From contig CAJTQT010000001.1 in NCBI GenBank assembly GCA_910578325.1, forward strand, positions 4,527 through 68,526: a stretch of 64,000 nt of DNA, given 5' to 3'. The DNA comes from an uncultured Christensenella sp. (lineage in GTDB: Bacteria; Bacillota; Clostridia; Christensenellales; CAG-917). This document shows, one piece after another, positions 30,634 through 64,000 of this stretch (position 1 is the stretch's first letter; each line of letters begins with the position of its first letter). The notes beneath the pieces are model-generated. The model had not been told where the DNA came from and searched no databases. It saw only the letters and a program-made list of their open reading frames with translations. The position numbers and the translations under genes were made by a program.

Positions 30634-30681
30634 AACAAATAAAATTAAACGAAGCGGCTAATTATGCCGCAAGGCTGAGAT

Positions 30682-37431: not shown

Positions 37432-38817
37432 ATGGCACAACTTACAATGGAAAAGATTGTCGCGCTTGCAAAAAACCGCGGCTTTGTCTATCCCGGCAGC
37501 GAAATTTACGGCGGACTGTCCAACTCGTGGGATTTCGGTCCTCTCGGCGTCGCGCTCAAAAACAACATCAAACAAGCCTGGTGGAAAAAATTCGTCGTCG
37601 AAAATCCTCACACAGTGGGTATCGACAGCGCGATTCTTATGAATCCGACTACCTGGCAGGCTTCCGGACATATCGGAGGATTCTCCGACCCGCTTATGGA
37701 CTGCAAAAGTTGTAAATCCCGTCACCGCGCAGACAACCTCATCGAAGACTATATGGCAAAGCACGGCATCGAGGGCAACATCGCAGGCTGGACCAACGAA
37801 CAAATGGAACAGTACATCGCAGAAAATAAAATTCCCTGCCCCGTATGCGGCAACAGCGATTTTACCGGCGTAAGAAAATTCAACCTTATGTTCAAGACCT
37901 TTATCGGCGTAACGGAGGACAGCACTTCAACCGTATATCTCCGTCCCGAAACCGCGCAGGGCATTTTCGTGAACTTCAAAAACGTTCAGCGCACTACGCG
38001 CAAAAAGATACCTTTCGGAATAGGTCAGATAGGAAAGAGTTTCCGCAACGAAATCACGCCCGGGAACTTCATCTTCCGTATAAGAGAATTCGAACAAATG
38101 GAAATGGAATTCTTCTGCAAACCCGACACCGATCTCGAATGGTTTGCATACTGGAAAAACTTCTGCCATCAGTGGTTGCTCGGTCTGGGTATGCGCGAAG
38201 AGAATCTCCGTCTGCGCGATCACGACGCGGAGGAACTCTGCTTCTATTCAAAAGCAACAACCGACTTCGAATATAAATTCCCCTTCGGATGGGGCGAACT
38301 GTGGGGCGTTGCCGACCGTACCGATTACGACCTTAATCAGCATATCAAGACGAGCGGCAAAGATTTGAGTTATGTAGACCCTGTCACAAACGAAAAATAC
38401 GTACCCTACGTTGTCGAGCCGTCGCTCGGCGCGGACCGTGCGTTCCTCGCGTTCCTCTGCGACGCATACGACGAAGAACAGGTCGGCGAAAACGATACGC
38501 GAGTCGTGCTTCACTTCCACCCCGCGCTCGCACCCGTCAAAGTTGCAGTACTTCCGCTTCAAAAGCAACTCAATGAAAAAGCGGAATCTCTGTACGTCGA
38601 ACTCTCCAAACACTTTGCCTGCGATTTCGACACGTCCGCGTCAATCGGCAAACGTTATCGCAGACAGGACGAGATAGGAACTCCGTACTGCGTAACGGTT
38701 GACTTCGAATCCCTCGAAGACGAGTGTGTAACCGTGCGCGAGCGCGACACGATGGCGCAAGTCCGCCTGCCTATCGAAGATTTGGTGAAATACTTCGAAG
38801 ACAAAATGGAATATTGA
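37432..38817 (+). CDS. glyQS: Glycine--tRNA ligase (single-chain alpha2 GlyQS type)
   Basis: [34 protein letters not shown], class II motifs ([11 protein letters not shown]) and an anticodon-binding C-terminus are present. I chose the ATG at 37432 behind GGAGG. The track starts at a GTG at 37417. Confidence 0.9.
38787..38817 (+). repeat. Direct repeat copy 1 (last 10 codons of glyQS, including the stop codon)
   Basis: GAAATACTTCGAAGACAAAATGGAATATTGA recurs at 40774-40804 with 30/31 identity. Confidence 0.85.
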
Positions 38818-38834
38818 ATACAAATTTGATTTAT

Positions 38835-38866
38835 AAAAGAAGCGCGCATTTTTGCGTGCTTCTTTT
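38835..38866 (+). terminator. Rho-independent terminator after glyQS
   Basis: AAAAGAAGCGCGCA-TTTT-TGCGTGCTTCTTTT. Confidence 0.75.
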
Positions 38867-38883
38867 ATAAATCAACAAAATTC

Positions 38884-39096
38884 TTAATTTAAAGTTATAC
38901 TTATTTTTGTATCAGGCTCATCAACCATATTCGAAATAATCAATTTATCCGAAATATCCCCCTTTTCAATATTTAATTGAATTACCTCAAGAACATAATG
39001 CTTTAAATCCATTAAATCATTTAAATACATTTTTTTTCTTAGTTTATCACTGTTCGTCTTATGAACCTTTTCAAAATTTTTTAAAACCTGCTTCAT
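38884..39096 (-). CDS. Hypothetical 70-aa protein (island gene)
   Basis: AT-rich ORF with a GAAGG RBS 6 nt upstream. Sequence begins MKQVLKNFEKVHKTNSDKLRKKMYLNDLMDLKHY. I recognise no family. Confidence 0.45.
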   Translation of the reverse strand: MKQVLKNFEKVHKTNSDKLRKKMYLNDLMDLKHYVLEVIQLNIEKGDISDKLIISNMVDEPDTKISITLN

Positions 39097-39128
39097 ATTA
39101 ACCTTCTTTTTATAAATTTTACATTAAA

Positions 39129-39272
39129 TCAATTTAAGTACTCTATTTCAATTGTTGCCTTAGAATTATCAGATAAAAAAATCAATATCTTGTTATTGTC
39201 ATAAATTATCTCATTTGAAACTTCTAGATTCATACCTGCTCTAATTAACTCCAAAATCAAAGGTATTCCCAT
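39129..39272 (-). CDS. Hypothetical 47-aa protein (island gene, below ORF-track cutoff)
   Basis: Hand translation gives MGIPLILELIRAGMNLEVSNEIIYDNNKILIFLSDNSKATIEIEYLN*. GAGGAGG lies 9 nt upstream. It sits 32 nt upstream of the 70-aa ORF on the same strand. Confidence 0.35.
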   Translation of the reverse strand: MGIPLILELIRAGMNLEVSNEIIYDNNKILIFLSDNSKATIEIEYLN

Positions 39273-39403
39273 AATGCATCACCTCCTCTATTGCTTATTC
39301 GTTCGAATTATATTGCATAGGCTCATTTTAACATCTCCTAAGACTGACACAAAGCATTTTTACTCATACTTTGCAATAAAATTTTAGCAGAAGGTGGCTT
39401 ATT

Positions 39404-39862
39404 ATGTCGAAACTTGTCTATAGGCTTAAAACACTTTTTGATAGTTATGATTTATCAACCGTAACTGGACAACAAGCGTTAGAAATCAGCAAAACACAAT
39501 TAGGTAGATACTTATCGGGATTTTATGTGCCGTCATTAAAAAACGCAATAAAGATTTGTGATTACTTTGACTGTTCACTGGATTACCTACTTGGTATAGA
39601 CGAAGAAAAAAATCGATTCGGAAATTTTGAAGAACCTAATTTTGAGATTTTTTCAAAAAGATTCCTACAAATTCTCAGCGAGCACAATTTAAGCATATAT
39701 CAGGTTGCGAAGAAATTAGAAATCAATAGAAACAATTGGACTTATTGGAATAAGAAAAAAACTTTACCGACTTTGGAAACAATTTATAAGTTGGCTAAAG
39801 AGTTCGAAGTATCTGCCGAATTCCTAATCGGTCGGACAAAAATTAAAAAAGGATCACTATGA
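39404..39862 (+). CDS. Dual-HTH XRE-family regulator, paralog 1
   Basis: Two Cro/C1-type HTH modules are present (..ISKTQLGRYLSG..AIKICDYFDCSLDYLLG and ..IYQVAKKLEINRNNWTYW..LAKEFEVSAEFLIGR). AAGGTGG RBS. Confidence 0.8.
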   Translation: MSKLVYRLKTLFDSYDLSTVTGQQALEISKTQLGRYLSGFYVPSLKNAIKICDYFDCSLDYLLGIDEEKNRFGNFEEPNFEIFSKRFLQILSEHNLSIYQVAKKLEINRNNWTYWNKKKTLPTLETIYKLAKEFEVSAEFLIGRTKIKKGSL

Positions 39863-40293
39863 ATTTCAATCTAAGATTAAAAGAACTTCTTGACGAACAA
39901 GAGATTTCTGCAAGAAAACTGTGCGAACAAATAGGTATCGACCATACGTCGATATATATGTATTTACAAGGCGGTTATCCAAATTTAGAAAACGCAGTTA
40001 AAATTGCGAACTATTTCGACTGTACGCTAAATTTCTTGTTCTGTATTGATGAACTTCCTAATCAATATAAGTTTTTCTATGAATATAATGCAGGCTTATT
40101 TTTCAAAAGATACACGGATTTATTACGACTAAACAAAATCTCTCATTACAAGGTCGGTAAGGAACTGAAATTAGGGAATTCTACATTTAAAAAATGGCAA
40201 AGTGGCTGCATCCCTAAAATCGAAACGCTGACAAAACTATCAAAATATTTTGGCTACTCTATTGATTACCTCGTTGGTCGTAGCGATACGTAA
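39859..40293 (+). CDS. Dual-HTH XRE-family regulator, paralog 2
   Basis: Same two-module layout as paralog 1 (..ARKLCEQIGIDHTSIYMYL..IANYFDCTLNFLF and ..HYKVGKELKLGNSTFKKW..LSKYFGYSIDYLVGRSD). ATGA start/stop overlap with paralog 1. Confidence 0.8.
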   Translation: MNFNLRLKELLDEQEISARKLCEQIGIDHTSIYMYLQGGYPNLENAVKIANYFDCTLNFLFCIDELPNQYKFFYEYNAGLFFKRYTDLLRLNKISHYKVGKELKLGNSTFKKWQSGCIPKIETLTKLSKYFGYSIDYLVGRSDT

Positions 40294-40305
40294 AGGATAA
40301 AACAT

Positions 40306-40749
40306 ATGACCGAATTTACAAGAATTTTAAAAGAATTATTAGATGAACAAAACACTACAATTCGTTCTTTAAGTCCGCAAATTGGTATTCCCTACCAGGA
40401 ACTGTACACATACGTTAATGATGATTATTTTCCGTCAATATATAACGCCGAAAAACTTGCGAACTATTTCGACTGTTCGTTTGATTATCTCTTCGGTCTT
40501 TCAGATACTTTTAAAACATCCGAATTTAAAGAAGTCGACATTTCTAAATTTTATCCGAGGTACTTAGAATTATTACAAGAAAACAAAATTAGCCACCACC
40601 ATTTATACAAAACATTAGGGTTGAGCAAATCAGGTCTGAGTAAATGGAGAAACGGTTCTGTTCCAAAGATTGAAAGCCTGTTAAAAATCGCCAAATTTTT
40701 TGGCACTCACATAGATTATTTAGTAGGACGTAGCGACATAAGGTATTAG
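40306..40749 (+). CDS. Dual-HTH XRE-family regulator, paralog 3
   Basis: Same layout (..LANYFDCSFDYLFG and ..IAKFFGTHIDYLVGRSD). AAGGA RBS. Lies 12 nt after paralog 2. Confidence 0.8.
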   Translation: MTEFTRILKELLDEQNTTIRSLSPQIGIPYQELYTYVNDDYFPSIYNAEKLANYFDCSFDYLFGLSDTFKTSEFKEVDISKFYPRYLELLQENKISHHHLYKTLGLSKSGLSKWRNGSVPKIESLLKIAKFFGTHIDYLVGRSDIRY

Positions 40750-40773
40750 CAAATCAAAACCCACAGTATCGGA

Positions 40774-40804
40774 GAAATACTTCGAAGACAAAATGAAATA
40801 TTGA
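40774..40804 (+). repeat. Direct repeat copy 2 (relic glyQS 3' end)
   Basis: GAAATACTTCGAAGACAAAATGAAATATTGA differs from copy 1 by one substitution. In the glyQS frame it would read KYFEDKMKY*. Confidence 0.85.
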
Positions 40805-40832
40805 TATATCATCATCTATATATTTATAATAT

Positions 40833-40865
40833 GAAGAAAACGCGCAGGACTGCGCGCTTCTTTTT
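40833..40865. terminator. Bidirectional terminator between the island/relic glyQS end and rex
   Basis: GAAGAAAACGCGCAGGACTGCGCGCTTCTTTTT has a GC-rich stem with A/T runs on both sides. Confidence 0.6.
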
Positions 40866-40898
40866 AAGTTGCGATATATACAAAAGCGACAGACCTGT

Positions 40899-41546
40899 TT
40901 ATTCTCCGAGCGGCGGAGTTTTCAACTGCATACTCAAAAGCGCGAGCGACGCCGCCAAATCTTCGCCTTTGACCGCTATGCCTTCGGGCAATGTAAGATG
41001 TACAGGCGCAAAACACCATATCGCTTTAATGCCCGCGTCAACCATACTGTCGGCAACCGACTGAGCCGCAGCCGACGGCACGCAGATAATGCCGAGCCGT
41101 ATTTTGTATCTTTCCACAATGCCTTTAAGTTTATCCGTCGAATAAACGGGCTTTCCGTTGACCGAAGTATCTACCACTTTTTCGTCGGCGTCGAAAGCGC
41201 ATACGATATTCAAGCCGTAGTTACGAAATCCGTCATAGCCGAGGATTGCCCTTCCCAGTCCGCCTACACCTACAAGCACAGCGTCGCGCGTATTGTTATA
41301 GCCGAGGAAATCTTCGAGGTCGGCAATGAGTTCTTTTGTGACGAATCCCGTCTTAGGCTTGCCCGCCACCGAGGATACGAGCGCAATGTCTTTGCGCACC
41401 TGTACGGGATTGAGCCCAAGTCCGTTTGCTATCGTAGTGCTCGAAACGTTGGGAACGTTCTGTTTGTTGAGTTGATACAGATAGCGCAAATAGGACGGCA
41501 ACCGCCTCAGCGTTGCTTTTGACATTTCGCTGTTCTGTTCCTGCAT
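40899..41546 (-). CDS. rex: Redox-sensing transcriptional repressor Rex
   Basis: ATLRRLPSYLRYL winged-helix N-terminus and a Rossmann GVGGLGRAI motif. 215 aa. Confidence 0.9.
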   Translation of the reverse strand: MQEQNSEMSKATLRRLPSYLRYLYQLNKQNVPNVSSTTIANGLGLNPVQVRKDIALVSSVAGKPKTGFVTKELIADLEDFLGYNNTRDAVLVGVGGLGRAILGYDGFRNYGLNIVCAFDADEKVVDTSVNGKPVYSTDKLKGIVERYKIRLGIICVPSAAAQSVADSMVDAGIKAIWCFAPVHLTLPEGIAVKGEDLAASLALLSMQLKTPPLGE

Positions 41547-52352: not shown

Positions 52353-52574
52353 ATGGAATACGGTTTGAAAACTACGGTCGGCAAAAATCTCAAAGAAAGC
52401 CGCACCGCCGCAGGGTACACTCAGGCGCAGGTTGCAAAACTAATGAATATGACGCAACAGCAATACAGTCGGTTTGAAAACGGCATATTCGAACTCAACT
52501 ATGACCAACTCGTATATCTTTGCACGCTTTTCGACGTTTCAAGCGATTTTTTATTAGGTCTTTCGCTGTTTTAA
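52353..52574 (+). CDS. Small XRE-family HTH transcriptional regulator (73 aa)
   Basis: GKNLKESRTAAGYTQAQVAKLMNMTQQQYSRFENG is a canonical Cro/C1 HTH. No SD is visible. TACAAT ends 6 nt before the ATG, so a leaderless transcript is possible. Confidence 0.75.
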   Translation: MEYGLKTTVGKNLKESRTAAGYTQAQVAKLMNMTQQQYSRFENGIFELNYDQLVYLCTLFDVSSDFLLGLSLF

Positions 52575-53483
52575 ACTTTTGGCAAAAAATGATTTTTTTG
52601 TTTTCGCGTTTTCAACCGCCTCTTTTTGCAATCTGTTTTTTTGCGTCTTCGCAGGCTTTCCTTTTCCGCTCAAAGCAGATTCGAGCGTATTAGATAGCCT
52701 GTTTTTCAGCGCAAGAGCCTTTAAATCCGCTTCTGAAAGCACCGCGACGGGTTCGCCTTGCGGACCTATGATTTCAAACGTCGTTTCACAAGTCGACGCG
52801 ACGTGATGATACAGCCTTATAATCGGAGCGTCCTGCGAAATTCTCACCGTCTTACGCTCTACCCCCAGCATATAATTCTTGCTCGCACTGTCCAGAATGC
52901 TGATATACATCTCCTCTTTTGTTCCGAACGCCGAACCGTAAAACAGAAATACCGCTATTATTCCGAAAGTAAAATTGAGTCCGAAAAAGAAGGAACCTAT
53001 AAAAAGCCCTAAAAATATCACGCTGCAAACTATCCCCGCAATTTGCAAGCCTTTTATCGCTTTGAGTTTGTTTTTGCAAAGTCCGAGAACTATGCGCGAG
53101 CCGTCCAAAGGATATATCGGAAGCAGATTGAAAATGCCCAGAGAAAGATTTGCGTAAAAGAAAATCTCCGTATACGAATATACCGAGGGGAACAGCCACC
53201 ATACGCCCAGCGTGATAAGCGAGAGCACAAGATTGCAAACAGGACCTGCAAGCCCCACAAGTACAGAGGACGGACGGTCGAAATTCTCTTCCGTACTCAT
53301 CATTGCGCCGAACGGAAGGAGCACCATTTTCTTTACGGTAAACCCTCGCAGCCGCGCCATAGCCGCGTGCGCGAGTTCGTGAAGAATAAGCGCGATAAAC
53401 GTCAGCACAAACGCCTGCGCCCGCCCGAGCGCGACAAGCGCGAGAGCGAGCACGAAAAACAGCGGATGCACTTTTATCTGCAT
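52554..53483 (-). CDS. spoIVFB: M50 site-2 metalloprotease, SpoIVFB-like
   Basis: HELAHA zinc motif in a TM helix, the NLLPIYPLDG motif, and a C-terminal CBS-like domain are present. The position after the min genes matches Bacillus. Confidence 0.8.
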   Translation of the reverse strand: MQIKVHPLFFVLALALVALGRAQAFVLTFIALILHELAHAAMARLRGFTVKKMVLLPFGAMMSTEENFDRPSSVLVGLAGPVCNLVLSLITLGVWWLFPSVYSYTEIFFYANLSLGIFNLLPIYPLDGSRIVLGLCKNKLKAIKGLQIAGIVCSVIFLGLFIGSFFFGLNFTFGIIAVFLFYGSAFGTKEEMYISILDSASKNYMLGVERKTVRISQDAPIIRLYHHVASTCETTFEIIGPQGEPVAVLSEADLKALALKNRLSNTLESALSGKGKPAKTQKNRLQKEAVENAKTKKSFFAKSLKQRKT

Positions 53484-53496
53484 AGCGAAACTCTTA

Positions 53497-53733
53497 TCAG
53501 ATATTAGTCAGGAAATTCGCAACCGATTTGATTGCGTCCACAGCCGCGGACGCCTTAAAGATGTTCGCAAACAAAAATCCCAAAGATACGAATACGCCGA
53601 GCACGACAGGAACTATCGCGACATCGAGAAAGTCGATAGAATGTTTGCGGCGGCGTTTTTCCGTCACTCTGTTTTCTACAAATTCGTTTGTCGAAATTTC
53701 TACGTCAAGTTTTTTATTCTCGTCAAATTCCAT
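53497..53733 (-). CDS. Small bitopic membrane protein (78 aa), unknown function
   Basis: GAGGTG RBS and one TM helix (VAIVPVVLGVFVSLGFLFANIF). It occupies the slot upstream of spoIVFB. Confidence 0.5.
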   Translation of the reverse strand: MEFDENKKLDVEISTNEFVENRVTEKRRRKHSIDFLDVAIVPVVLGVFVSLGFLFANIFKASAAVDAIKSVANFLTNI

Positions 53734-53794
53734 ATTGTCACCTCGGCAATATCCTATTCTTTGAGAATCCGTTTTATACCTGACTTTGCAAAAA

Positions 53795-54046
53795 TCAGTA
53801 CCTTTTTATATCGAACGTCGTTTCAAACTGTTTTATTCGCGTTGCCGAAGCGGAAACGGTTATTCTGTACTCGCCGCTATCCATAAGAACTATGTCTATT
53901 TCCGCCGCGTCCGTCAAATCGAAATAATCGTTTAAAATACGGTTTAAGTCACCCGTCAGCGCGGTGGAAAACCCTTCTTTTACTCCCACCTTGTCGTGAA
54001 TGAGCATATCCCGCATACGTTTTGCAATCTCTCTGTCCCTTTTCAT
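53795..54046 (-). CDS. minE: Cell division topological specificity factor MinE
   Basis: 83 aa directly after minD. IAKRMRDMLIHDK matches the MinE AKERLxxxLxHDR block. Confidence 0.7.
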   Translation of the reverse strand: MKRDREIAKRMRDMLIHDKVGVKEGFSTALTGDLNRILNDYFDLTDAAEIDIVLMDSGEYRITVSASATRIKQFETTFDIKRY

Positions 54047-54058
54047 AATACCTCTCTA

Positions 54059-54808
54059 TTACCTTCTGCGGAACAAACGGTGTCTGTACTTTACGTCAAC
54101 GAAATTCTTTGTCGAATTCGCTACGTTTTCGGCAAGCGCGTCGTACGCCCTGTCGGACACCGAAGACTGCGGCATAGTTCCGAGTTGCTGATAAAGAGTT
54201 ATCATATCGTCTTCGGGAATTACGCCCACCGGCGGCGTATGGAGAAGGGAACCTATTTCAGCCGCGCCGATCATCTCTCCTCTCGAAACCATATCGGGAC
54301 GAACCCTGTTTACCACTATGGAAATATCGGAAAGTCTGTATCCTGCAAGCAGACTTATCACCTTGTCCGCGTCCCTGATTGCCGAAGCGGACGGCGTTGT
54401 AACTACAATAGCCTCGTCCGCAGCCGAAACAGCGCGGTGAAAACCGTGTTCAATTCCGGCGGGACAGTCTATAATGACAAAATCGAATTCGGAAAATCCG
54501 TCCACTATGCCTCTAAACGCCTGAGCGGTCAGCAATGTACTGTCCTTTGACGACGGGAGTATGCGCATAGGGCTCAGCGTATCCGCCACCAACGCCTGAA
54601 ACGCGCGGCATTTACCTGCAAGCACATCGCTCATATCGTAAACGACGCGGCGTTCTATTGCGGTCACGACGTCGAGATTGTTTAATCCCACGTCTCCGTC
54701 GACGAGCACTACTCTGTATCCGTTCAGCGCGAGTTTGCGCCCGAGCGCGGCGGTTACGGTCGTTTTGCCAACGCCGCCCTTTCCGGAAGTTATAACTATT
54801 CTTCTCAT
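54059..54808 (-). CDS. minD: Septum site-determining ATPase MinD
   Basis: Deviant Walker A SGKGGVGKTT and a ParA/MinD fold. The C-terminal amphipathic tail is basic. Confidence 0.9.
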   Translation of the reverse strand: MRRIVITSGKGGVGKTTVTAALGRKLALNGYRVVLVDGDVGLNNLDVVTAIERRVVYDMSDVLAGKCRAFQALVADTLSPMRILPSSKDSTLLTAQAFRGIVDGFSEFDFVIIDCPAGIEHGFHRAVSAADEAIVVTTPSASAIRDADKVISLLAGYRLSDISIVVNRVRPDMVSRGEMIGAAEIGSLLHTPPVGVIPEDDMITLYQQLGTMPQSSVSDRAYDALAENVANSTKNFVDVKYRHRLFRRR

Positions 54809-54914
54809 AGATATATAATAAAAAACAGACGGATGAAACTCCTGTCTGTTTTTGAGATAAAACGTATTTATTTGGCGAAAAAATATTATATTTCCCGCGC
54901 CTGTCTCCCCATTG

Positions 54915-55913
54915 TCAGGACAGTTTTATGCCAAGCATATCACCGAGCAGAACTTTATTGTCGAAAAACTTCGCGCCGCCGCTCGCAACGGCATTGTCCA
55001 TATCGCGCAAAAGCGTAATGGGCAATTCCAACGCCTGTTCAAGATACTGCAAGAGTCCGGGGATATGCAAACTGCCGCCCGTAACAAAAATACCCTTTCT
55101 CAGAATTTCCGCCGCAAGTTCGGGGGGAGTCTGATTGAGTACGGACATAATAACTTCGATAATATCGTCTACAAGCGGAATAACCGCGTCGCGCATCTCC
55201 TCGGCAGATACGTACAGGCTTCTCGGACTACCGTCCTTTCCGCCGCCCGACACCGCATAACTTCCCGCATCGTTCAGATAAAACGAAAGCGCGGACTGTT
55301 TCAGATTTTCAATTGTGTACTCGCCGACCTTTACTCCGTAATGCATATAAAGGCTATCGATAATAGCGTTATTAAACGCGTCTCCCGCTATATTTACGGA
55401 ACAACCCGCCGCAATACCTCTGTTGGTCACCGCGGAGATTTCCGTCTTTCCTCCGCCGATATCCACAAAAAGACCTCCGATACTCCCCGTATATGCCAGA
55501 AGCGACAGCGGAGCCTCGACGAGAGTAACCTCTTTTATCCCCGCTTTCAGACAGCATTTTTCAACGGCGCGACGCTCCGAACCCGAAGACGACATACAGA
55601 TTGATACAATCGCTTTGATGCGCGGCGCAACGAGACTCGGCGGAAGGATTTTTTTAAGAAAATATTTAAGCATCATCGCCGCCATTTCCTCATCGACGAC
55701 AATTCCTTCCTTTATAGGAGCAATAATCTTTGCTCCGCCCAGCGAACCCGTCATAATGCTTTGCGCGCGATAACCGGCTTCGCGGATTTCAAGCCTGTTG
55801 CGCGCCTGCACCGCAATAGCAATAGCGGGCTCGCGCAAAACGGGACCTATTCCTTTTTGACAAATCGTAATGAATTTGCTTCCCAAATCGATAGAAAGTT
55901 CAACCGTTGACAT
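54915..55913 (-). CDS. mreB: MreB/Mbl-family actin-like protein (divergent)
   Basis: IDLGSKFITI phosphate-1, VDIGGGKTEI phosphate-2 and VTGGSLHIPGL adenosine motifs are present. 332 aa. Confidence 0.8.
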   Translation of the reverse strand: MSTVELSIDLGSKFITICQKGIGPVLREPAIAIAVQARNRLEIREAGYRAQSIMTGSLGGAKIIAPIKEGIVVDEEMAAMMLKYFLKKILPPSLVAPRIKAIVSICMSSSGSERRAVEKCCLKAGIKEVTLVEAPLSLLAYTGSIGGLFVDIGGGKTEISAVTNRGIAAGCSVNIAGDAFNNAIIDSLYMHYGVKVGEYTIENLKQSALSFYLNDAGSYAVSGGGKDGSPRSLYVSAEEMRDAVIPLVDDIIEVIMSVLNQTPPELAAEILRKGIFVTGGSLHIPGLLQYLEQALELPITLLRDMDNAVASGGAKFFDNKVLLGDMLGIKLS

Positions 55914-56493
55914 TTCTTACTCCGAATCCCGCAAGCACTTTTGCGAGTTTTTCCATCGGCAATCCCACAATATTTGTATAACTGCCCCTGTATTTTTCAA
56001 CTATAAGTCCGTCCTGTATGCCGTATGCGCCGGCTTTGTCGAGCGGATTTACGTCGTCCACATATTTCCTTATCTCATCTACGCTCAGTTTTTTGAGTTT
56101 TACCTTAGACTTCTCCGAAAAGCAAATTTCCCGTCCGTCGCAGATGACCATAACTCCAGTATACACCGAATGCCAACGTCCGCACAGCCTTGAAAGTATC
56201 TTTTCTGCGTCCTTATAGGAGCACGGCTTGCCGTAGACTTTTCCTCTCAATGCAACAACGGTATCCGCACCTATAACCGCAGCGTCAGGCTGTTGTTCCG
56301 CCCGCGCTTTTGCGGCGGACAACCGCTTTACAAGCATCCGCGGAGACGGAGCGCGCACCGCGCTCTCATCGATATCGGCGGGACGAATCTCAAATTCCAG
56401 TCCGTTAGATTGCAGAATTTCTCTTCTCCTCGGAGACGCCGAAGCAAGAATAATCCGCTTGTTGTTTGCATTCATATCGTCTTTTGCAGTCAA
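55900..56493 (-). CDS. maf: Maf-like nucleoside triphosphate pyrophosphatase
   Basis: IILASASPRRREIL and GAYGIQ motifs are present. It overlaps the mreB start by 14 nt. Confidence 0.9.
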   Translation of the reverse strand: MTAKDDMNANNKRIILASASPRRREILQSNGLEFEIRPADIDESAVRAPSPRMLVKRLSAAKARAEQQPDAAVIGADTVVALRGKVYGKPCSYKDAEKILSRLCGRWHSVYTGVMVICDGREICFSEKSKVKLKKLSVDEIRKYVDDVNPLDKAGAYGIQDGLIVEKYRGSYTNIVGLPMEKLAKVLAGFGVRNVNG

Positions 56494-56526: not shown

Positions 56527-58047
56527 TCAGAGTATTTCGAGATTCTTTCCGTAAGCCGCCTTGAAATCAGCAGACGCGCTTATGGCGTCTTTTATTTCAA
56601 GCGAACAGTCTCCGCCGTTTTCAGTTTCGGTTTTGACGATAACGCTGTCGCCCAGCACGTCGCAGTTGACGCCCGTCACGACGCCGCTCTGGCTTCTGTC
56701 GAAACTCTCGGCTATCCGCAGAATTACGCTCAGTTTCCTTATCGCTTCAAGATCCTCCTGCGTAATCATATCCTTATACTTCAATATATCATCTCTCGAA
56801 AACTCCGTCTTTCTGTGACCGTACGCCACAAACGAAGCGAGAACGATGTCTTTATGCGGCACTCCGTAAAGGTTGCTGTTGAGAATTATATACTGAGAAT
56901 GTATCTGATGATTGTAGAATTTTATTCTCATACCGCTATCGTGCAAAAGCGCGGCGATTTTGAGCACTCGCACGTAAGCGCGCGGCATTTTGTGCAGAAC
57001 TTTAAGTTGCTTGAACAACTGTATGGAAAGATTGTATACGTGTTCGGCGTGATCGACGTTGATGTCGAAATACTTCATCTGCGTGAGAAGCGAATGTCCC
57101 AAAACGTCGCTGAGCGGACGTTCGTTTACGGACGGAACCGCATAGCGGAACATCGCTCCCTCCCTGAGTCCGCAACCGCTTACCGTTATTTTCTGGAACC
57201 CGAATTTACCTATCACCGCTTTCATAACCGCAAGCGCACTGGGGAAGATATCCGCCCTTCCGCTGGAAAGCCCCTTTATCTTCATAGTGCTGTTGAGGTC
57301 GAGTTTTTTTATCGTGTTATAGATATTGTCAAAATCCGAAGTGCTCAACTCGTAATTGTGAGTCATATTGAAAGGATATTTGCTTATCATTCTGCTGATT
57401 CTTCCGAGGTTGCGGAAACTTCCGCCCACGCCGACAAAAGAAGTATCCGGCTCCACCGTGTCAAGCCAGGACACCTTTTCCAACTGATCCGAAATGAAAT
57501 CCTCTATTTTCTGCGCTCTTTCCTGCGGAGTGGATACGTCCGCCTTGAACAAATCCGTGAGCGTAACCGCGCCGAAAGGAAGCGTCTCGTAATGTATGAG
57601 ATTGCGTCTGTTGTAATAAATGAGATTCGTCGAACCGCCGCCCATTTCCATTATGAGACCTTTGGGGATATCCATAGAATTTATAACGCCCTGATATACG
57701 AGCATAGCCTGTTCTTCTACGGAGAGCACCTTGATCTTAATCCCGCAGGTCATCGCCACTTCGTCAAGAAAACTCTTCTGGTTTTTGGCACGGCGCACCG
57801 CGGCGGTGGCATACGCGAAAATCTTGTCCACGCGGTTAGCGTCGCAGAGCCTGCGGAACATAGTTAGCGTCTTTATGGTCTGTGCAATACGCTGCGGTTT
57901 GATGAAACCGTCCCAATCCATATCCTGACCGAGACGCACCGTTTCTTTAAGTTCGTCAAAAACGACGAAATGTCCGCCGTCGAGGACGTTGACAAGCACT
58001 AATCTTGCCGAATTCGAACCGAGATCGATAATTGCTATCTTTTCCAT
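56527..58047 (-). CDS. ppx: Ppx/GppA-family exopolyphosphatase with C-terminal HD domain
   Basis: IAIIDLGSNSARLV, the GGGS block and the HD-domain LLHDSG are present. Confidence 0.85.
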   Translation of the reverse strand: MEKIAIIDLGSNSARLVLVNVLDGGHFVVFDELKETVRLGQDMDWDGFIKPQRIAQTIKTLTMFRRLCDANRVDKIFAYATAAVRRAKNQKSFLDEVAMTCGIKIKVLSVEEQAMLVYQGVINSMDIPKGLIMEMGGGSTNLIYYNRRNLIHYETLPFGAVTLTDLFKADVSTPQERAQKIEDFISDQLEKVSWLDTVEPDTSFVGVGGSFRNLGRISRMISKYPFNMTHNYELSTSDFDNIYNTIKKLDLNSTMKIKGLSSGRADIFPSALAVMKAVIGKFGFQKITVSGCGLREGAMFRYAVPSVNERPLSDVLGHSLLTQMKYFDINVDHAEHVYNLSIQLFKQLKVLHKMPRAYVRVLKIAALLHDSGMRIKFYNHQIHSQYIILNSNLYGVPHKDIVLASFVAYGHRKTEFSRDDILKYKDMITQEDLEAIRKLSVILRIAESFDRSQSGVVTGVNCDVLGDSVIVKTETENGGDCSLEIKDAISASADFKAAYGKNLEIL

Positions 58048-58326: not shown

Positions 58327-58737
58327 TTAAGTTTGACGGCTTGTTTTTTTATTTTTTTGTTTTCCGAACCTGAAATTCGCGGCTGTCTTGAACACCAGCG
58401 AACCGACCGCGACAACGCACAGGAATCCGCCGAAAAGTTTTTTGAGCAAATCGCCGTCTATCCGCGTTGCAAAAACGGAAGCGGCGGCGCACGTAACTAA
58501 CGCGGGCAGCAACAGCCATCCCAGATTTTGAGTCTTTACAAGTCCGTTATTTGTGTGTAACGCAAGCGCGATGGCGCCCGACGGCAAAAACGCAATCAGA
58601 TTTGCATACTGGGCAGTAAGTTGCCCTACCCCCAACACCAACACTAACAGCGGAAGCGTCAGCGTTCCTCCGCCCATACCCATTCCTGCAAGAATCCCTC
58701 CGAGCACGCCCGCGAGAATAAAATATAAAAAATTCAT
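58327..58737 (-). CDS. Half-size TauE/SafE (TSUP) family membrane protein, second half
   Basis: 136 aa with 4 TM segments. ILAGVLGGILAGMGMGGGTLTLPLL is a TSUP glycine-rich motif. Confidence 0.7.
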   Translation of the reverse strand: MNFLYFILAGVLGGILAGMGMGGGTLTLPLLVLVLGVGQLTAQYANLIAFLPSGAIALALHTNNGLVKTQNLGWLLLPALVTCAAASVFATRIDGDLLKKLFGGFLCVVAVGSLVFKTAANFRFGKQKNKKTSRQT

Positions 58738-58779: not shown

Positions 58780-59214
58780 TCATCCTGTAATCATCTTTAT
58801 TCCCGCAAAAAGCATAAGTCCGTAAAAGAGAAACGAAAGCAATTCGTTGGAAAGTTTTTTGAGCAATAACGCGCCGATTATTCCCCCTCCGACCACACCG
58901 ATCACGGTGGGCAGAATCACTCCCCACTCGAACGAGCCTCTTACGGAATAAACCACCGTGCTCACGAGACACAGCGGAAGAATCACCGCTATTGCGGTCG
59001 CGTGCGAATGCCTGTCGTCAAGTCCGCCTATAAACGAGAGCGCGGGAACGGCAAGCATCCCGCCTCCCGCTCCGAAAATTCCGTTTACTATTCCTATAAA
59101 CAAACCCGCAAGAGCAAGAAACAATCTGCGTTTTTTTATGCTCTTTGCTTTTAGACGGTTATATTTAAAGGTGTTGCCGTCAATTATTCTGTTGTAAAAC
59201 ACCGTATCCGCCAT
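58780..59214 (-). CDS. Half-size TauE/SafE (TSUP) family membrane protein, first half
   Basis: 144 aa with 4 TM segments. GIVNGIFGAGGGMLAVPAL is a TSUP motif. Confidence 0.7.
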   Translation of the reverse strand: MADTVFYNRIIDGNTFKYNRLKAKSIKKRRLFLALAGLFIGIVNGIFGAGGGMLAVPALSFIGGLDDRHSHATAIAVILPLCLVSTVVYSVRGSFEWGVILPTVIGVVGGGIIGALLLKKLSNELLSFLFYGLMLFAGIKMITG

Positions 59215-59293: not shown

Positions 59294-59322
59294 TTGCCAA
59301 AAGGGGCTTTTTGTATTAGAAT
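59294..59322 (+). promoter_or_regulatory. Candidate sigma-A promoter for the 1465-aa surface protein gene
   Basis: TTGCCA (59294-59299), a 17-nt spacer, then TAGAAT (59317-59322). The leader contains the 14-bp palindrome GCGCGTATACGCGC. Confidence 0.5.
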
Positions 59323-59415
59323 GTTTAATCATATATATTTATGCGGCGCGTATACGCGCACGCGTTTAGGTATTGATAGGGCGAAAGCCTAAAAATAAAT
59401 CTTTACAGGTTTGGT

Positions 59416-62400
59416 ATGAACAAGAAGAAATTTACTGTACTGGCTCTACTGATGGTTGTGATACTTACGCTCACCACCTGCCTGTTCGTTGCCTGCAACC
59501 CCGATAATTCGGACGACGGCACGAATAAGGAAATCAAGGCGACGGAAGGATTGCTCATCAACAACAGCGACTTCAAGGTCGTGGACACGTCCGTAAAGAC
59601 GTATCCGCGCTCACTGACGAGTTGGACGGGCGCGAAGATGTATTCGACGAGCACGTTCAGAGACGACGTAACCGCGGGTATTATAAACCTCGAACAGTCG
59701 TTGTACAACGCGAACAAGTCGAAGTGGGAAGACGTTGACGACGTCATTCGCGAGAAACTTCTCGCAGGCGGAAGATACGGTTCCGACGACGAAATCAAAA
59801 ACGCGCTTATGATTTATATGCCCGAGGAAACCACAAACAGCAACGGCAATAAAATCCACGGCGCAACCGCATACGGCTATACGTCCACGAGTTTCACTCT
59901 CGACAAAGGTTCGTACTATAAACTCACCGTCGACGTACTCACCTACGACATCGCAGGCGAAAAAGACGACAAGGGCAACCCCGTCGAGGGAAGCCAGCCC
60001 GGAGCGCGCATTTACGTAAGTTCCAACACTTACGCCGAATTTGCGGGCATCGACACGAAGGGCGAGTGGAAGACTTACACCATTTATATCGAAACGGCTC
60101 CCGCCGCTACAACCAGCCTTACGCTTCAACTCGGTCTGGGTAAATATCAATCCTACTTCACCAAAGGTCTGACGACGGGATATGCGTTTTTCGATAACGT
60201 TCTTCTCGAAAAAATCGAAGAAGACGGCTCCGAAAAATTCGCTGACGCTTTGGAGCAGGAAAAGACCGACGGCGGAGTTGCAACCGCTACTCTGAAAGTT
60301 CCCAACGGACGTTTCGAGTTCGGCTCCACCACCATTTCGTCTTCCGGCGCGCCCAGTTCCTGGACGCTCACTCCCGGCAACAGCGGCAAGGACGATCCCG
60401 CACCCTCTTCTCTGGGCTACAACGCGGTTATCGATCTGAGCAAATTTGCCGACAACTATACAAAGTATTCCTCGACATATCACACCAGAAGCGGCGACAA
60501 CTCCACTAATACGGAATATATCCCCGCCAAAAATCTGAGCAACATCGTCGATTTGATTACCGCGTACGAAGGCAGAGTCGGCAACAACGCCTTTATGCTC
60601 TCCCAGCAACTTATGACCGCTCAGGGCATAAAGTCCTCTCGTACTATCACAATCGAAAAGAACAAAATCTATAAACTCTCCGTTCAACTGTACACTTACG
60701 CAATCCACGGAGCGGGCGTTTCGCTTATCCTTACCGGAAGCGACGGCAAGGACATCGTCATAAAGGGCATTTCCTCCGCGCCGTCCGACAACGTGTTTAT
60801 CGGTTCGACCATTATAGACCCCGACAACAAGGGCTATACCAGCGGCGAAGACACGGGCGCGAGCACAAACGGCTGGACAACGTATTCCTTCTATATTCAG
60901 GGCAACCAGTTCAAAGATTATTCGTACAATATGAACATCTGGCTGGGTACGGAAGGCACAAACAGCAATAAGCAGGTCAAATATCACAGTTACACATCCA
61001 ACTCCGACAACGCGACGACTTATCGCGCCAACGGAACGTTCTCGAACGGCTGGGTGTTTATCGACGACCTCGCTCTTGACGAAATCAGCGTACTCCCCGA
61101 GGCTGACGCAGGCGTCGGCATTATGGGCGCAAACGAAAATCAGACTCTCGACTGCGCAGTAAGCGGCAACAATTACACATCTCTCCTTGTCGACCTGACG
61201 ACTGATAACCTCTTTGGCGAAGGAGAAGATTACATGCTCGATAACGCGTCCGGCAAGACGTCTCTCGACGGCATCAACGCAATCGGAAGCGGCGCGCCGA
61301 AAGGCTGGAAGAGCAACTTCGACGTCACCGACGAATCGAATCCCGTCATCGCGGATAACTCGGGCGAGAGTTTCATAAGCGAAGGCATCGTTGACCTCAC
61401 AAGCGAAAGCACTTTCAAAACCGCTGTCGGCGACGCGCACGTCTATCCCGGTCTACCTTACAACACCGTTTCCAAAAACGCGTATATGATGCACTCCGCA
61501 AAAGTCGGATATTTCGAAGTAGACACGGATACGTTAACAATCAAAGCGAATCAATTCTACCGCATCTCACTGTGGCTCAAAACGACGGACGTCAGCGCGA
61601 CAAGCGGCGCGTACGTATACCTCGTCGATAAATCCGCCGAGGAAGAAGCGAATCTGACCAGTTTCACTAAAATCAACACCAAAGATTACGACGAGTATCT
61701 CAACGACTGGTGCGAAATCACAATGGTCATTCGCGGCGCGTCCGACAAAGACACCGACGTTGCGTTGCGCTTCACTCTGGGTACAGGCAACAGATTTGCC
61801 GCGTCCACTTTGACGAGCGGCGCGCTGTTCATCACAAATATGAATATGTCCACCATTACGTATGCAAACTTCAACGATACGAAGACGAGCACCTACGTAA
61901 AATCCGTGGATATGAGCGAATCGTATACCTACACTTTCACAAACGGAAACTTTGACGATTACGACCTCGACGACGAGAATCTTGCGGACGGCAAGCCCCT
62001 CAAAGAGCAGGACGTTGCCGCAACTCCCGACGAGTGGACAATCAACGACAATACGCTCGATATAAACGGCAAAAACGATTCCACCCTCTTCGCGGGCGTT
62101 ATCGCGCTCACTCCCGACGAGGACAGACTGCACTTCTCCACCAGCCATCAGGCTGAAACGGCGACCGGCATATCTTCGGATATTTTCAACAACTTCTATG
62201 ACGTTGACAATTATTCCGAGGAATACCTCAATTCGCTCGGCGGTCCGAATATGCTTGCAATAGGCAGCAAGGACGACAAGAGTTATGCCGCGGGCTTCGC
62301 TTCCGCAAGCGTAACGCTTTCGGCGAACACCTATTACAGCCTCAGCGTTTACGTCAAAACCGTAGGAAAAACGACTGCGAGCGTATTCCTCACAGGTGAA

Positions 62401-63813
62401 TCCAGCGCAACCGGCGAGAACGCGTTCATAATTCAACAGACCGCGTCCAACGGCGACTGGACGAAATACACTTTCTATATCGAAGTCGGCAACGCAAGCG
62501 TTTCCGTCAAACTCAACCTGTGGCTCGGAAGAGACGTTAAATATATGAACGTCGAAGGCGACGGCGAAGAGGAAAAAGAAGAGAACGCCAAATCTTCGGG
62601 CGCGGTATTCTTTGACAATATCAACTATCAGACTATCGACGAGGAAACTTACAACGAGTCCGCAGATATAGAAAGCAACAAAAAGATATCCTTCCTCACC
62701 GACAGTTTCGACTCGCTTTCCAGCACTATCGAATCCAGAAGTTCCCTCACCACCCCCAACGGCTGGACGGGAGCGGCGGATACCAACCAGAGCACTTCGA
62801 ACACCAAATCGGGTATTGCTTACGCAGACAGCGATTACTATGAAACCGAAATGGTGGACGGCACTCTCTACGCGAGACTGCTCGGCGTCGACTACAAGAT
62901 AGAAGACGTCAAAATAACCGACGAGGAACTCGAAGAGGCAAAAGAAAGCGGCAATTACGAAGATATGGAAGACTCCGATATCATCGCCGCGCTCAAAGAA
63001 AAGAAAGTGCTCGACCAGAAGAAAGAAAACTGGATTCCCGTCAGCGAACTCAAAGCGTTCAGCGGAAACAGAATGCTCGTCATCAACAACACCGTCAAGA
63101 GCGCGTACCGCTACACAAGTTCCTCCAACACTCTCAAAGAGAACAGTTGGTACAGAGTCAGCGTATACGTCCGCACTTACGGTCTTATCGGAGAAGATGA
63201 CGACGATACTATCGGCGCAAACGTCGAACTGTATCTCGGCTCCGCAAACGAATCCGACAATCCGTTCATCTTCAAAGCAATAAACACCCAGAAGCCCGAA
63301 ACGGAAGTCTCCCCCGCATCCAACGAATGGACTCGCTATGAGTTCTACGTAAAGACGCTCGACGACGACATCACTTCTGTCACAATCAAACTTTCGCTCG
63401 GCTCATATTCTTCTAACAACATCGACGGCGAAGACGTTGTCAAAGGTCTGACAAGCGGTTACGCGATGTTCGACGACGTCACGATTGAAAAAATCGACGA
63501 AGATACTTTTGAAAAAGTTGAAGAGAGCGATACCGTTCTCAAACGTACAGTAGCGGCATATCAACCGGGCGACAGCAATGATCCCGGAGAGAACGATACG
63601 CCTAACAATAAATTCAACCTCGATTATCTGTGGTGGATGATCCCGACCATCGTAATCGGACTTGTTATCATAATCGTTGTTATAGTCTTAGTCGTCCGCA
63701 AAGTTCGCAAGAATATGGTCGGCAACAAGAAGAAAGTCAAGAAATCGAATGCCCCGACGCGCTCGGAAGCAATCGACCACAAGCACAGCAGATACGACGA
63801 AGGCAAAGAATAA
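59416..63813 (+). CDS. Large surface protein: lipobox signal, five CBM/jelly-roll-like repeat modules, C-terminal TM anchor
   Basis: Lipobox LFVAC (Cys27). Five modules each carry the series YYKLTVDV / EWKTYTIYIE / LTLQLGLG / GYAFFDNVLLEKI, with variants at about aa 420, 715, 974 and 1246. TM helix at aa 1405-1427 followed by a Lys/Arg tail. Confidence 0.8.
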   Translation: MNKKKFTVLALLMVVILTLTTCLFVACNPDNSDDGTNKEIKATEGLLINNSDFKVVDTSVKTYPRSLTSWTGAKMYSTSTFRDDVTAGIINLEQSLYNANKSKWEDVDDVIREKLLAGGRYGSDDEIKNALMIYMPEETTNSNGNKIHGATAYGYTSTSFTLDKGSYYKLTVDVLTYDIAGEKDDKGNPVEGSQPGARIYVSSNTYAEFAGIDTKGEWKTYTIYIETAPAATTSLTLQLGLGKYQSYFTKGLTTGYAFFDNVLLEKIEEDGSEKFADALEQEKTDGGVATATLKVPNGRFEFGSTTISSSGAPSSWTLTPGNSGKDDPAPSSLGYNAVIDLSKFADNYTKYSSTYHTRSGDNSTNTEYIPAKNLSNIVDLITAYEGRVGNNAFMLSQQLMTAQGIKSSRTITIEKNKIYKLSVQLYTYAIHGAGVSLILTGSDGKDIVIKGISSAPSDNVFIGSTIIDPDNKGYTSGEDTGASTNGWTTYSFYIQGNQFKDYSYNMNIWLGTEGTNSNKQVKYHSYTSNSDNATTYRANGTFSNGWVFIDDLALDEISVLPEADAGVGIMGANENQTLDCAVSGNNYTSLLVDLTTDNLFGEGEDYMLDNASGKTSLDGINAIGSGAPKGWKSNFDVTDESNPVIADNSGESFISEGIVDLTSESTFKTAVGDAHVYPGLPYNTVSKNAYMMHSAKVGYFEVDTDTLTIKANQFYRISLWLKTTDVSATSGAYVYLVDKSAEEEANLTSFTKINTKDYDEYLNDWCEITMVIRGASDKDTDVALRFTLGTGNRFAASTLTSGALFITNMNMSTITYANFNDTKTSTYVKSVDMSESYTYTFTNGNFDDYDLDDENLADGKPLKEQDVAATPDEWTINDNTLDINGKNDSTLFAGVIALTPDEDRLHFSTSHQAETATGISSDIFNNFYDVDNYSEEYLNSLGGPNMLAIGSKDDKSYAAGFASASVTLSANTYYSLSVYVKTVGKTTASVFLTGESSATGENAFIIQQTASNGDWTKYTFYIEVGNASVSVKLNLWLGRDVKYMNVEGDGEEEKEENAKSSGAVFFDNINYQTIDEETYNESADIESNKKISFLTDSFDSLSSTIESRSSLTTPNGWTGAADTNQSTSNTKSGIAYADSDYYETEMVDGTLYARLLGVDYKIEDVKITDEELEEAKESGNYEDMEDSDIIAALKEKKVLDQKKENWIPVSELKAFSGNRMLVINNTVKSAYRYTSSSNTLKENSWYRVSVYVRTYGLIGEDDDDTIGANVELYLGSANESDNPFIFKAINTQKPETEVSPASNEWTRYEFYVKTLDDDITSVTIKLSLGSYSSNNIDGEDVVKGLTSGYAMFDDVTIEKIDEDTFEKVEESDTVLKRTVAAYQPGDSNDPGENDTPNNKFNLDYLWWMIPTIVIGLVIIIVVIVLVVRKVRKNMVGNKKKVKKSNAPTRSEAIDHKHSRYDEGKE

Positions 63814-63840
63814 TCCCCGCCTTTAAGTAATCGACATCGG

Positions 63841-63870
63841 GACGCCGCTCTTATGAGCGGCGTCTTTATT
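63841..63870 (+). terminator. Rho-independent terminator of the surface protein gene
   Basis: GACGCCGCTC-TTAT-GAGCGGCGTC is followed by TTTATTATT. Confidence 0.8.
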
Positions 63871-64000
63871 ATTAGCAGGTACGGACAAAACTCTGCAATC
63901 TTACGCGCGTATAAAGTGTTCTTATGCGCGCTCAGACAGCATAAAGTTTTAGCAATGAATAAAACTGCCAAATCTTTCGGAATCGTAACGAGTTTTGCCG

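Follow-up and report, generated by a model that had tools for sequence, protein, structure and literature searches.

BIG, a large envelope protein of five CBM-like modules with predicted membrane anchors at both ends, in Christensenellales-type gut Clostridia

We analysed a 64,000-nucleotide stretch of contig CAJTQT010000001.1 from an uncultured Christensenella sp. (hereafter the window) and describe here a 1465-aa envelope protein encoded in it, for which the name BIG is used. The evidence firmly supports BIG as a core, probably vegetative, lineage-specific envelope protein that is composed of five modules resembling carbohydrate-binding modules (CBMs) and has no enzymatic domain. The modules are flanked by a predicted lipid anchor at the N-terminus and a predicted transmembrane (TM) helix at the C-terminus. 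As to function, we tentatively favour a wall-proximal glycan-binding scaffold. The open reading frame (ORF) is intact, with an ATG start and 1465 codons, and a protein 100% identical to its product is present in the database. BIG is among the largest proteins of these small genomes and is covered by no domain database. It belongs to the Christensenellales, which rank among the gut lineages with the highest heritability and the closest links to health, are mostly uncultured, and have a cell envelope that is essentially undescribed.

Repeated modules and predicted anchors of BIG

Self-BLAST of BIG detected no internal repeats, and profile-profile comparison was needed to reveal them. Module profiles were cut from an alignment of 119 BIG orthologues and compared by hhalign. 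All module pairs matched, with E-values ranging from 7e-6 (modules 2 and 3) to 2.5e-23 (modules 1 and 5) and probabilities of 85-99.5%; for module 1 against the other modules, the range was 3.6e-13 to 2.5e-23. A hidden Markov model (HMM) of the module core found exactly five copies in BIG (aa 141-269, 390-559, 687-816, 944-1076 and 1218-1362) and exactly five in 119/119 close orthologues. These comparisons confirm the five modules as true internal repeats. All 20 strand motifs quoted in the initial annotation were found once each in BIG, where it had placed them. The end motifs start at aa 255, 545, 802, 1062 and 1348 and put the module ends at about aa 267, 557, 814, 1074 and 1360, in agreement with those it had proposed.

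An N-x-x-F-[DE]...W strand opens each module and G-x-x-x-F-D-[DN]-[VIL] closes it, and these start and end motifs follow the usual order of CBM_4_9-type domains. In the AlphaFold2 models every module carries a helical insertion, which accounts for the module length of 225-290 aa. The most striking motif of the orthologue alignment is the nearly invariant LSQQLMTAQG of module 2; HG[PA]TAYGYT in module 1 is a further invariant stretch. The ectodomain as a whole is roughly 150 kDa and acidic (pI 4.3), rich in Ser, Thr and Asn, and nearly devoid of Cys.

Sequence databases gave little for the window protein. Full-length BIG had no Pfam match at E <= 1 and none above threshold in NCBIfam; the PDB-sequence search with full BIG returned nothing usable, and profile searches of PDB sequences with the BIG alignments returned nothing except one chance TM match. 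The first 1200 aa gave only PF22637, at aa 966-1038 in module 4 (E = 0.23; 12 bits, where the cut-off is 27). Pfam CBM_4_9 (PF02018) was matched by 5/14 orthologues (best E 6e-8), and the window protein lies below the gathering threshold of this family. We searched two AlphaFold2 models (aa 1-1200, mean pLDDT 68.7; aa 826-1465, mean pLDDT 76.1) against the PDB with Foldseek for the fold assignment. Both models are strings of beta-sandwiches with helical inserts. The CBM matches were the CBM22 tandem 4xup, CBM4-2 (1k42/2y64), CBM16 (2zey/3oeb; TM-score 0.55-0.58 over about 140 columns) and CBM70 (4d0q; 0.61). Other matches were reelin repeats, the C-terminal beta-rolls of Cry1 protoxin, CBM-like domains of GH101 and the surface glycan-binding protein SGBP-B (7kwb). 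The best E-values, 4e-14 to 1e-7, were obtained with the Cry1 protoxin C-terminal extension and the reelin repeats; the TM-scores of multi-domain matches were low (0.08-0.17) because the relative orientation of the domains differs.

The single-domain matches establish the jelly-roll class of the modules. The models, together with the CBM_4_9 matches in orthologues, support the predicted placement of the modules in the CBM4/9/16/22 beta-jelly-roll class, as had been suggested from the motifs. The CBM4, CBM9, CBM16 and CBM22 domains (PF02018, GBD clan) have the same fold, and BIG shares their order of strand motifs: N-G-x-F-E...W at the start, Y-x-L-S-x-x-V-K, W-x-x-Y-x-F, and G-x-x-x-F-D-D-V at the end. 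However, those CBMs measure about 140-160 aa, whereas the BIG modules are longer and are not appended to any enzyme. The modules fall below every Pfam threshold and so do not match a well-characterised family of known function. In line with the initial annotation, no catalytic domain was found in BIG or in eight distant relatives by Pfam, NCBIfam and PDB-sequence searches. By the CAZy definition, under which a CBM is part of a carbohydrate-active enzyme, the modules of BIG are CBM-like and not CBMs; that they bind carbohydrate is a prediction from the modelled fold. BIG matched none of the PHROGs and PADLOC models, and a phage or defence origin was rejected, as its chromosomal context is conserved.

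The two anchors were predicted as follows. For the N-terminus we used a lipoprotein rule that asks for a basic n-region, a hydrophobic h-region and a lipobox of the form [LIVMF..]-x-[AGS]-C with the Cys at 15-35. The N-terminus of BIG, MNKKKFTVLALLMVVILTLTTCLFVAC followed by N, fits this PROSITE PS51257-style pattern with Cys at 27: the n-region MNKKKF (K3-K5) is followed by a hydrophobic stretch and then by LTLTTCLFVAC, which ends at Cys27. This Cys is invariant in the orthologue alignment, and the box [LF][VA]AC[ND] is present in essentially all of about 70 orthologous loci. The sole other hydrophobic segment revealed by the hydropathy scan is at aa ~1401-1436, where the AlphaFold2 model has a helix (aa 1402-1432). 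A conserved motif, F-N-x-[DE]-x-L-W-W-M-[IV]-P-T, precedes the TM helix, and the segment itself has conserved W, P, T and G residues. The predicted tail has 13 K/R among 38 aa (pI 10.4), and its end is conserved as K-[HR]-x-[KR]-Y-D-[DE]-x-K-E (H-S-R-Y-D-E-G-K-E in the window protein).

These elements were also counted in 343 full-length family proteins that we retrieved. A lipobox is present in 283 of them (83%), a C-terminal hydrophobic segment in 339 (99%), and an aromatic-acidic motif within the last nine residues in 242 (71%). The double anchor thus characterises the family as a whole and is not an accident of one sequence. BIG is thus predicted to be tethered at both ends, by lipid at Cys27 and by the TM helix. 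The lipobox, C-terminal helix and Lys-rich tail noticed earlier are all present and conserved family-wide, and the rule-based fit and invariant Cys27 speak against a different type of N-terminal signal. In a subgroup of the wider family, the signal peptide is of the ordinary kind and the Lys-rich tail is long; most members keep the lipobox. The genes lgt and lsp are not in the 64-kb window. A C-terminal sorting signal (of the LPXTG/sortase, PEP-, GlyGly-, IPTL- or GG_III-CTERM kind, for example) was considered and rejected: among the curated models only NF041738 (GG_III-CTERM) came up, at E = 0.54 and 10 bits against a cut-off of 22, no LPXTG motif was found in BIG, and the tail, at 38 aa, is long, with conservation extending to the last residue. 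A lipid anchor and a C-terminal TM helix on one extracytoplasmic chain make a rare topology that is worth documenting.

Distribution, expression signals and genomic neighbourhood

A word-indexed search returned 266 BIG homologues; the best 120 of them are full-length, 45-68% identical, and unnamed or 'hypothetical'. In a scan of one genome per GTDB species, we found 73 BIG loci in 73 species, one per genome. These metagenome-assembled genomes (MAGs) are labelled Christensenella sp., Christensenellales, Clostridia bacterium, CAG:238/475/917 and Candidatus Limadaptatus; some of the loci are in evidently mislabelled bins, and one is on a closed 1.65-Mb chromosome. Modules 4-5 and the C-terminal anchor, searched exhaustively as a profile with HMMER, gave 998 representatives of 50% identity clusters at E <= 1e-3 (711 at E <= 1e-10; 231 at E <= 1e-30). 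All the homologues found come from genomes and metagenomes of the Christensenellales type. The initial annotation had proposed a comparison of module number across genomes, which gave the constant five of the close orthologues and three to six in the wider family (about 850-1830 aa). A single-copy core gene of Christensenellales-type gut Clostridia is the strongly supported prediction from these searches.

BIG is conserved over its entire length, including the linkers between modules. A given module resembles the module at the same position in other species far more than it resembles its neighbours. The five-fold duplication must therefore be old, with a specialised module at each position. 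The median identity to the window proteins, calculated from the same genomes, is 50% for BIG and 48% for MurC, compared to 59% for the SpoVB-like flippase and 59-62% for the halves of the TauE transporter described below. BIG evolves about as slowly as MurC. For an extracytoplasmic protein of 150 kDa this pace is unusually low, and it speaks for a ligand or partner that is conserved and probably endogenous.

Upstream of the gene, the best promoter-like site in the scan is of the sigma-A type. An alignment of the upstream regions of 23 orthologues shows conservation of the two hexamers and of the AAGCATAT that follows them, and the form kept across the orthologues is TTGC[CA]A-17-TA[GA]AAT. This conserved promoter points to sigma-A-dependent, vegetative transcription. 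The leader between promoter and start codon has three conspicuous elements. One is a perfect 14-nt, GC-rich palindrome of alternating purines and pyrimidines, GCGCGTATACGCGC (59346-59359). We noted that the orthologues carry different palindromes at the same leader position, likewise GC-rich and alternating. The second is a 4-bp, GNRA-type hairpin (59379-59390), specified by hand before the covariation test, in which 88.7% of cells were paired, one covarying pair was A-U in 6 and G-C in 6, and 0/500 shuffles reached its score. Candidate roles for the palindrome and the hairpin are mRNA stabilisation or that of a binding site. The third is the conserved stretch AAAATAAATC...ACAGGTTTGGT directly ahead of the ATG. 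RNAalifold on the MAFFT alignment of the leader gave no meaningful consensus. No Rfam family matched the leader, and a riboswitch or other known RNA was rejected on this ground.

A terminator-like hairpin, the top site in the scan, lies 26 nt past the BIG stop (14424-14451 in L001, a longer contig, corresponding to window 63839-63866), and BIG is therefore probably monocistronic. Among about 50 ORFs of the window, BIG has the highest GC content at third codon positions (GC3; 0.65) and a joint-highest share of C-ending two-fold codons (0.71). This bias is consistent with good expression but is weak evidence for it.

In the window and L001, the genes upstream of BIG are, in order, Ppx/GppA, TauE-B and TauE-A on the minus strand, followed by BIG on the plus strand; downstream are a SpoVB-like flippase (+), DUF421, DUF4363, MurC (-) and SpoVG. 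The annotated start of the flippase overlaps the terminator-like hairpin and the TIGR02900 alignment begins at its aa 46; the true start may be further downstream than annotated. The flippase/DUF421/DUF4363 cluster is near BIG in most loci, not all, and the envelope-type genes near BIG loci comprise SpoVB-like flippase, DUF421, DUF4363, MurC, LysM and M23. An operon of BIG and the flippase is doubtful, given the strong hairpin after the BIG stop and the four genes that separate them in L003. In about 90 loci, BIG never adjoins a glycoside hydrolase or sugar (ABC) transporter gene. Nor is BIG encoded in a polysaccharide utilisation locus (PUL) with a SusC/SusD pair, its neighbours being the TauE halves, Ppx or Rnf, flippase, DUF421 and MurC.

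Some of these neighbours would suit a sporulation-specific envelope protein acting in cortex or coat assembly in the forespore intermembrane space: the SpoVB-like flippase, DUF421 (YetF-like), DUF4363 and a SafA-like LysM protein, as well as SpoIIID (L084), SpoVG and YpeB. We consider such a role very improbable, since the conserved promoter fits the sigma-A consensus and not that of sporulation sigma factors, the 212 bits reached by the flippase fall well short of the 372 required by the SpoVB equivalog model, and several BIG loci have no flippase cluster.

The most persistent neighbours are two half-size TauE/SafE (TSUP) genes, which lie divergently upstream of BIG in nearly all of the 73 species loci. 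The pair also adjoins BIG in 7/7 distant loci with readable upstream sequence (L079, L082, L083, L084, L086, L087 and L088), in which the identity of BIG falls to about 28%, the modules number 3-6 and the other neighbours are different. In a metagenome scan seeded with TauE-A, most split-TauE loci with enough flank carried an adjoining BIG homologue, and in L143, L147 and L153 the adjacency is kept with the opposite relative orientation. Exceptions exist on both sides: more distant split pairs of other lineages are without BIG (L131, L137, L138, L139, L157, L160, L162 and L167), and BIG has no adjoining pair in a low-GC clade (L034, L062, L065, L076 and L077). The pairing is therefore stable within the lineage and not obligatory, and offers a lead on a transporter family of poorly known physiological roles.

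In L131, L137 and L138, we observed the split pair to be divergent from a secreted protein of ~650 aa in place of BIG, followed by a ~184-aa protein with an N-terminal TM segment. The split pair thus adjoins a large extracytoplasmic protein in those other lineages too.

The constancy of the pair raises the alternative that BIG serves the split TauE/TSUP transporter as a subunit, be it an accessory, a receptor or a sensor. Its TM helix would pack against a TauE-A/TauE-B heterodimer, and its ectodomain would capture or sense a ligand outside the cell, possibly an anionic or sulfated one, and supply or gate the transporter; in a variant of this idea, the tail, which is conserved, might relay a signal into the cell. 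The adjacency in nearly all close loci, its persistence in the seven informative distant ones despite ~28% identity and differing neighbours, and its survival of a change in orientation are all in keeping with such a partnership, as are the conserved W, P, T and G of the TM segment and the conserved tail-end motif. We nevertheless rate it as rather unlikely: eight loci of other lineages have the split pair without BIG, the low-GC clade has BIG without the pair, and the BIG and TauE genes are divergent and not co-transcribed. We know of no TSUP transporter that uses a BIG-like subunit, and our literature search on the TSUP family found nothing relevant. With regard to signal relay, RsgI-type anti-sigma factors of Clostridium thermocellum span the membrane, expose CBM-type sensor modules and signal to the cytoplasm; their cytoplasmic anti-sigma domain and their single TM segment are both N-terminal. 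BIG differs in that its N-terminus is that of a lipoprotein, its tail measures only 38 aa and no gene for a sigma factor lies close by.

Proposed roles: scaffold, capture protein or coat

A vegetative, wall-proximal glycan-binding scaffold, the role that we tentatively favour for BIG, is in our judgement possible rather than probable. After Sec export and lipidation at Cys27, both ends of BIG would remain in the cytoplasmic membrane, and the five modules would form a membrane-proximal arch with little reach past the wall. A chain anchored at both ends extends only about half its contour length from the membrane, and the modules should therefore sit in or under the wall. There they might bind a glycan polymer, most probably that of the cell's own wall (peptidoglycan strands or a secondary wall polysaccharide), and BIG would act as a constitutive scaffold or organiser coupling membrane and wall. 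The conserved TM motif and the C-terminal Y-D motif may contact a membrane or cytoplasmic partner, for which the neighbouring TSUP pair is the obvious candidate. Slow, position-specific evolution and the single copy argue for an endogenous polymer rather than variable dietary glycans, and so does the combination of a cell-wall gene neighbourhood with the lack of PUL-like neighbours.

Several points weigh against this reading. Characterised CBM4/9/16/22 domains bind plant or microbial beta-glycans, not peptidoglycan, and the known wall-binding modules are absent from BIG, in which no SLH, CWB2, LysM, SH3b or choline-binding domain was found with Pfam and NCBIfam. The flippase cluster is missing beside BIG in L079, L086, L088 and the low-GC loci L062, L065, L076 and L077, and in a comparison confined to one order, synteny may be owed to common descent and not to function. 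The AlphaFold2 models were built on shallow alignments of 14-16 sequences, every named member of the family is a 'hypothetical protein' from a MAG, and the window holds no ribosomal-protein reference set for the codon-bias argument.

The modules might instead bind exogenous glycans, that is, dietary or host (mucin-type) polysaccharides at the cell surface, so that BIG would be a capture protein or adhesin that keeps a substrate or host surface near the cell, like the glycan-binding lipoproteins of Bacteroides or the multi-CBM proteins of Ruminococcaceae. The fold class is genuinely that of CBMs, SGBP-B (7kwb) and CBM-like domains from GH101 enzymes active on mucin are among the structural matches, and orthologues match CBM_4_9. 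The carriers of BIG are gut bacteria, members of the wider family differ in having anywhere from 3 to 6 modules, and a gene of the M60-like/F5_F8 mucinase type is about 8 kb off in L001. On the other hand, foraging proteins are usually multi-copy, variable and PUL-encoded, whereas BIG is single-copy, has MurC-like identity and holds a fixed place among housekeeping genes; 0 of about 90 loci have an adjoining glycoside hydrolase or sugar transporter, and double anchoring restricts the reach past the wall. We therefore regard capture of exogenous glycans as doubtful, though still worth considering. In Bacteroidota, SusE/SusF and SGBP-B are likewise lipid-anchored, non-catalytic strings of beta-sandwich or CBM-like domains at the cell surface. 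However, they reside in the outer membrane of diderms, are encoded in PULs beside SusC/D and have no C-terminal TM anchor, whereas BIG comes from a Clostridia lineage and has two anchors and no PUL.

Another alternative does without lectin activity. In a structural coat, the modules would pack by protein-protein contacts into a membrane-anchored surface lattice, comparable to the TM-anchored S-layer glycoproteins of archaea. The top Foldseek matches (reelin repeats and Cry1 protoxin C-terminal domains) and the acidic, Ser/Thr/Asn-rich, nearly Cys-free ectodomain are consistent with a coat, and the strong conserved promoter, structured 5' leader and biased codons suggest abundance. We find it unlikely, as self-assembly is without support, the multi-domain TM-scores indicate repeated jelly-rolls and not a shared quaternary structure, BIG is without SLH or CWB2 domains, and a literature search on the surface proteins and S-layers of Christensenellales found nothing relevant, S-layer reports included. 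The Cry1 protoxin C-terminal extension (domains V and VII) and the reelin repeats are, like BIG, tandem CBM-like beta-rolls with helical segments, but they are soluble or secreted, serve in crystal packing or receptor binding, have no membrane anchor and show no sequence similarity to BIG (7-12% identity). Archaeal S-layer glycoproteins have large acidic ectodomains of multiple beta-sandwiches and a C-terminal TM or lipid anchor. Tethering of the ectodomain by a C-terminal hydrophobic segment is common to them and BIG; they belong, however, to another domain of life, show no homology, and lack the N-terminal lipid anchor that BIG adds. A lattice is a feature of these archaeal proteins and, for BIG, only a candidate.

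Elements of these alternatives can be combined. BIG and the split TauE/TSUP pair might form an unrecognised Christensenellales-specific envelope system, in which BIG would be the extracellular arm of a small-anion transporter and perhaps also a major surface coat. It would capture a sulfated or anionic glycan or a wall precursor and couple this, through the TM helix and the Y-D motif, to transport or signalling; the coat could be a bacterial counterpart of the membrane-anchored archaeal S-layer proteins. Taken as a whole, this proposal is speculative and improbable. Should BIG prove to be a major envelope component, it would be a lineage marker, likely a dominant surface antigen, and an entry point to how Christensenellales build and use their surface. 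The jelly-roll fold and the concept of a multi-CBM surface lipoprotein are already known. As far as we found, there is no description of the BIG family, of its topology with two anchors, of its confinement to Christensenellales (about 1000 clusters), of a conservation like that of MurC or of the pairing with a split TSUP transporter.

Feature coordinates and further observations in the window

The features of the BIG locus are collected in Table 1.

Table 1. Features of the BIG locus in window coordinates, with the basis of each assignment
Feature	Residues	Window position	Strand	Basis
TauE/SafE (TSUP) half-transporter B, 136 aa, beside half A		58327..58737	-	Pfam PF01925
TauE/SafE (TSUP) half-transporter A, 144 aa, divergent from BIG		58780..59214	-	Pfam PF01925
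Sigma-A-type promoter-like site, TTGCCA, 17-nt spacer, TAGAAT		59294..59322	+	best site in scan, 10/12 matches
5' leader, about 95 nt		59323..59415	+	sequence; conservation in 23 upstream regions
BIG coding sequence including stop codon	1-1465	59416..63813	+	ORF list; 100% identical protein in database
Predicted lipoprotein signal peptide and lipobox Cys27 (L-F-V-A-C)	signal peptide 1-26; Cys27	59416..59496	+	PS51257-like rule
Module 1, CBM-like beta-jelly-roll with helical insertion	44-269	59545..60222	+	HMM (aa 141-269); AlphaFold2 strands
Antisense ORF, 609 codons, shadow and not a gene		59611..61440	-	codon register; TTA/CTA/TCA spacing
Module 2	292-559	60289..61092	+	hhalign, core HMM, AlphaFold2
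Module 3	590-816	61183..61863	+	hhalign, core HMM, AlphaFold2
Module 4, carrying the sole Pfam trace of BIG	838-1076	61927..62643	+	hhalign, HMM, AlphaFold2
Module 5, long helical insertion at ~aa 1169-1205	1090-1362	62683..63501	+	hhalign, HMM, AlphaFold2
Predicted C-terminal TM helix	1405-1427	63628..63696	+	hydropathy, AlphaFold2, invariant W, M, P columns
Predicted cytoplasmic tail, Lys/Arg-rich	1428-1465	63697..63810	+	pI 10.35; conserved C-terminal Y, D/K/E
Terminator-like hairpin, 12-bp stem, 8 G-C pairs, T-rich tail		63839..63866	+	top site in scan
Start of SpoVB-like MOP flippase, runs off the window		63853..64000	+	TIGR02900, 212 bits, cut-off 372

The antisense ORF opposite BIG had been dismissed as a shadow, and its mechanism and non-conserved length bear this out. 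It is in register with the sense frame, codon for codon, so that antisense stops arise only from sense TTA, CTA and TCA codons, of which there are seven among the 1465 codons of BIG. The ORF is bounded exactly by two such codons, 66 and 680. In orthologues the open length ranges from 96 to 1541 codons, and the ORF is therefore not conserved; as a gene it was rejected, being a mechanical by-product of codon choice. Among loci L041-L059 (L050, L051, L055 and L059, for example) the antisense frame is open for 1000-1541 codons, and in L050 it is open across the entire BIG gene, owing to the near-total avoidance of TTA, CTA and TCA codons. Such long frames opposite BIG are a trap for gene callers.

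Other parts of the window yielded minor observations. The 506-aa Ppx/GppA-family protein (56527-58047, minus strand) is 81-95% identical across Christensenellales species, compared to only 37-62% for MurC and 40-65% for BIG in the same species; either an extraordinary constraint or a recent spread between Christensenellales genomes could account for this. A 678-aa protein with a collagen triple-helix repeat and BspA-type leucine-rich repeats (4812-6848, plus strand) is probably another surface protein. On the minus strand at 52554-56493, the gene order is maf, mreB-like, minD, minE, a small ORF and an M50 peptidase, which we take to mirror the maf...minCD-spoIVFA-spoIVFB region of B. subtilis; from this likeness, the M50 protease may be SpoIVFB and the organism may be a spore former. 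The region 38000-41000 has a low GC content (0.38), and its three small ORFs (39404-40749) have a GC3 of 0.30-0.33, compared to 0.5-0.6 in other parts; the DNA here may be foreign. At 27487-31686 on the plus strand, two tandem paralogues resembling LeuA/homocitrate synthase (504 and 517 aa) are followed by an isopropylmalate/isocitrate dehydrogenase gene.

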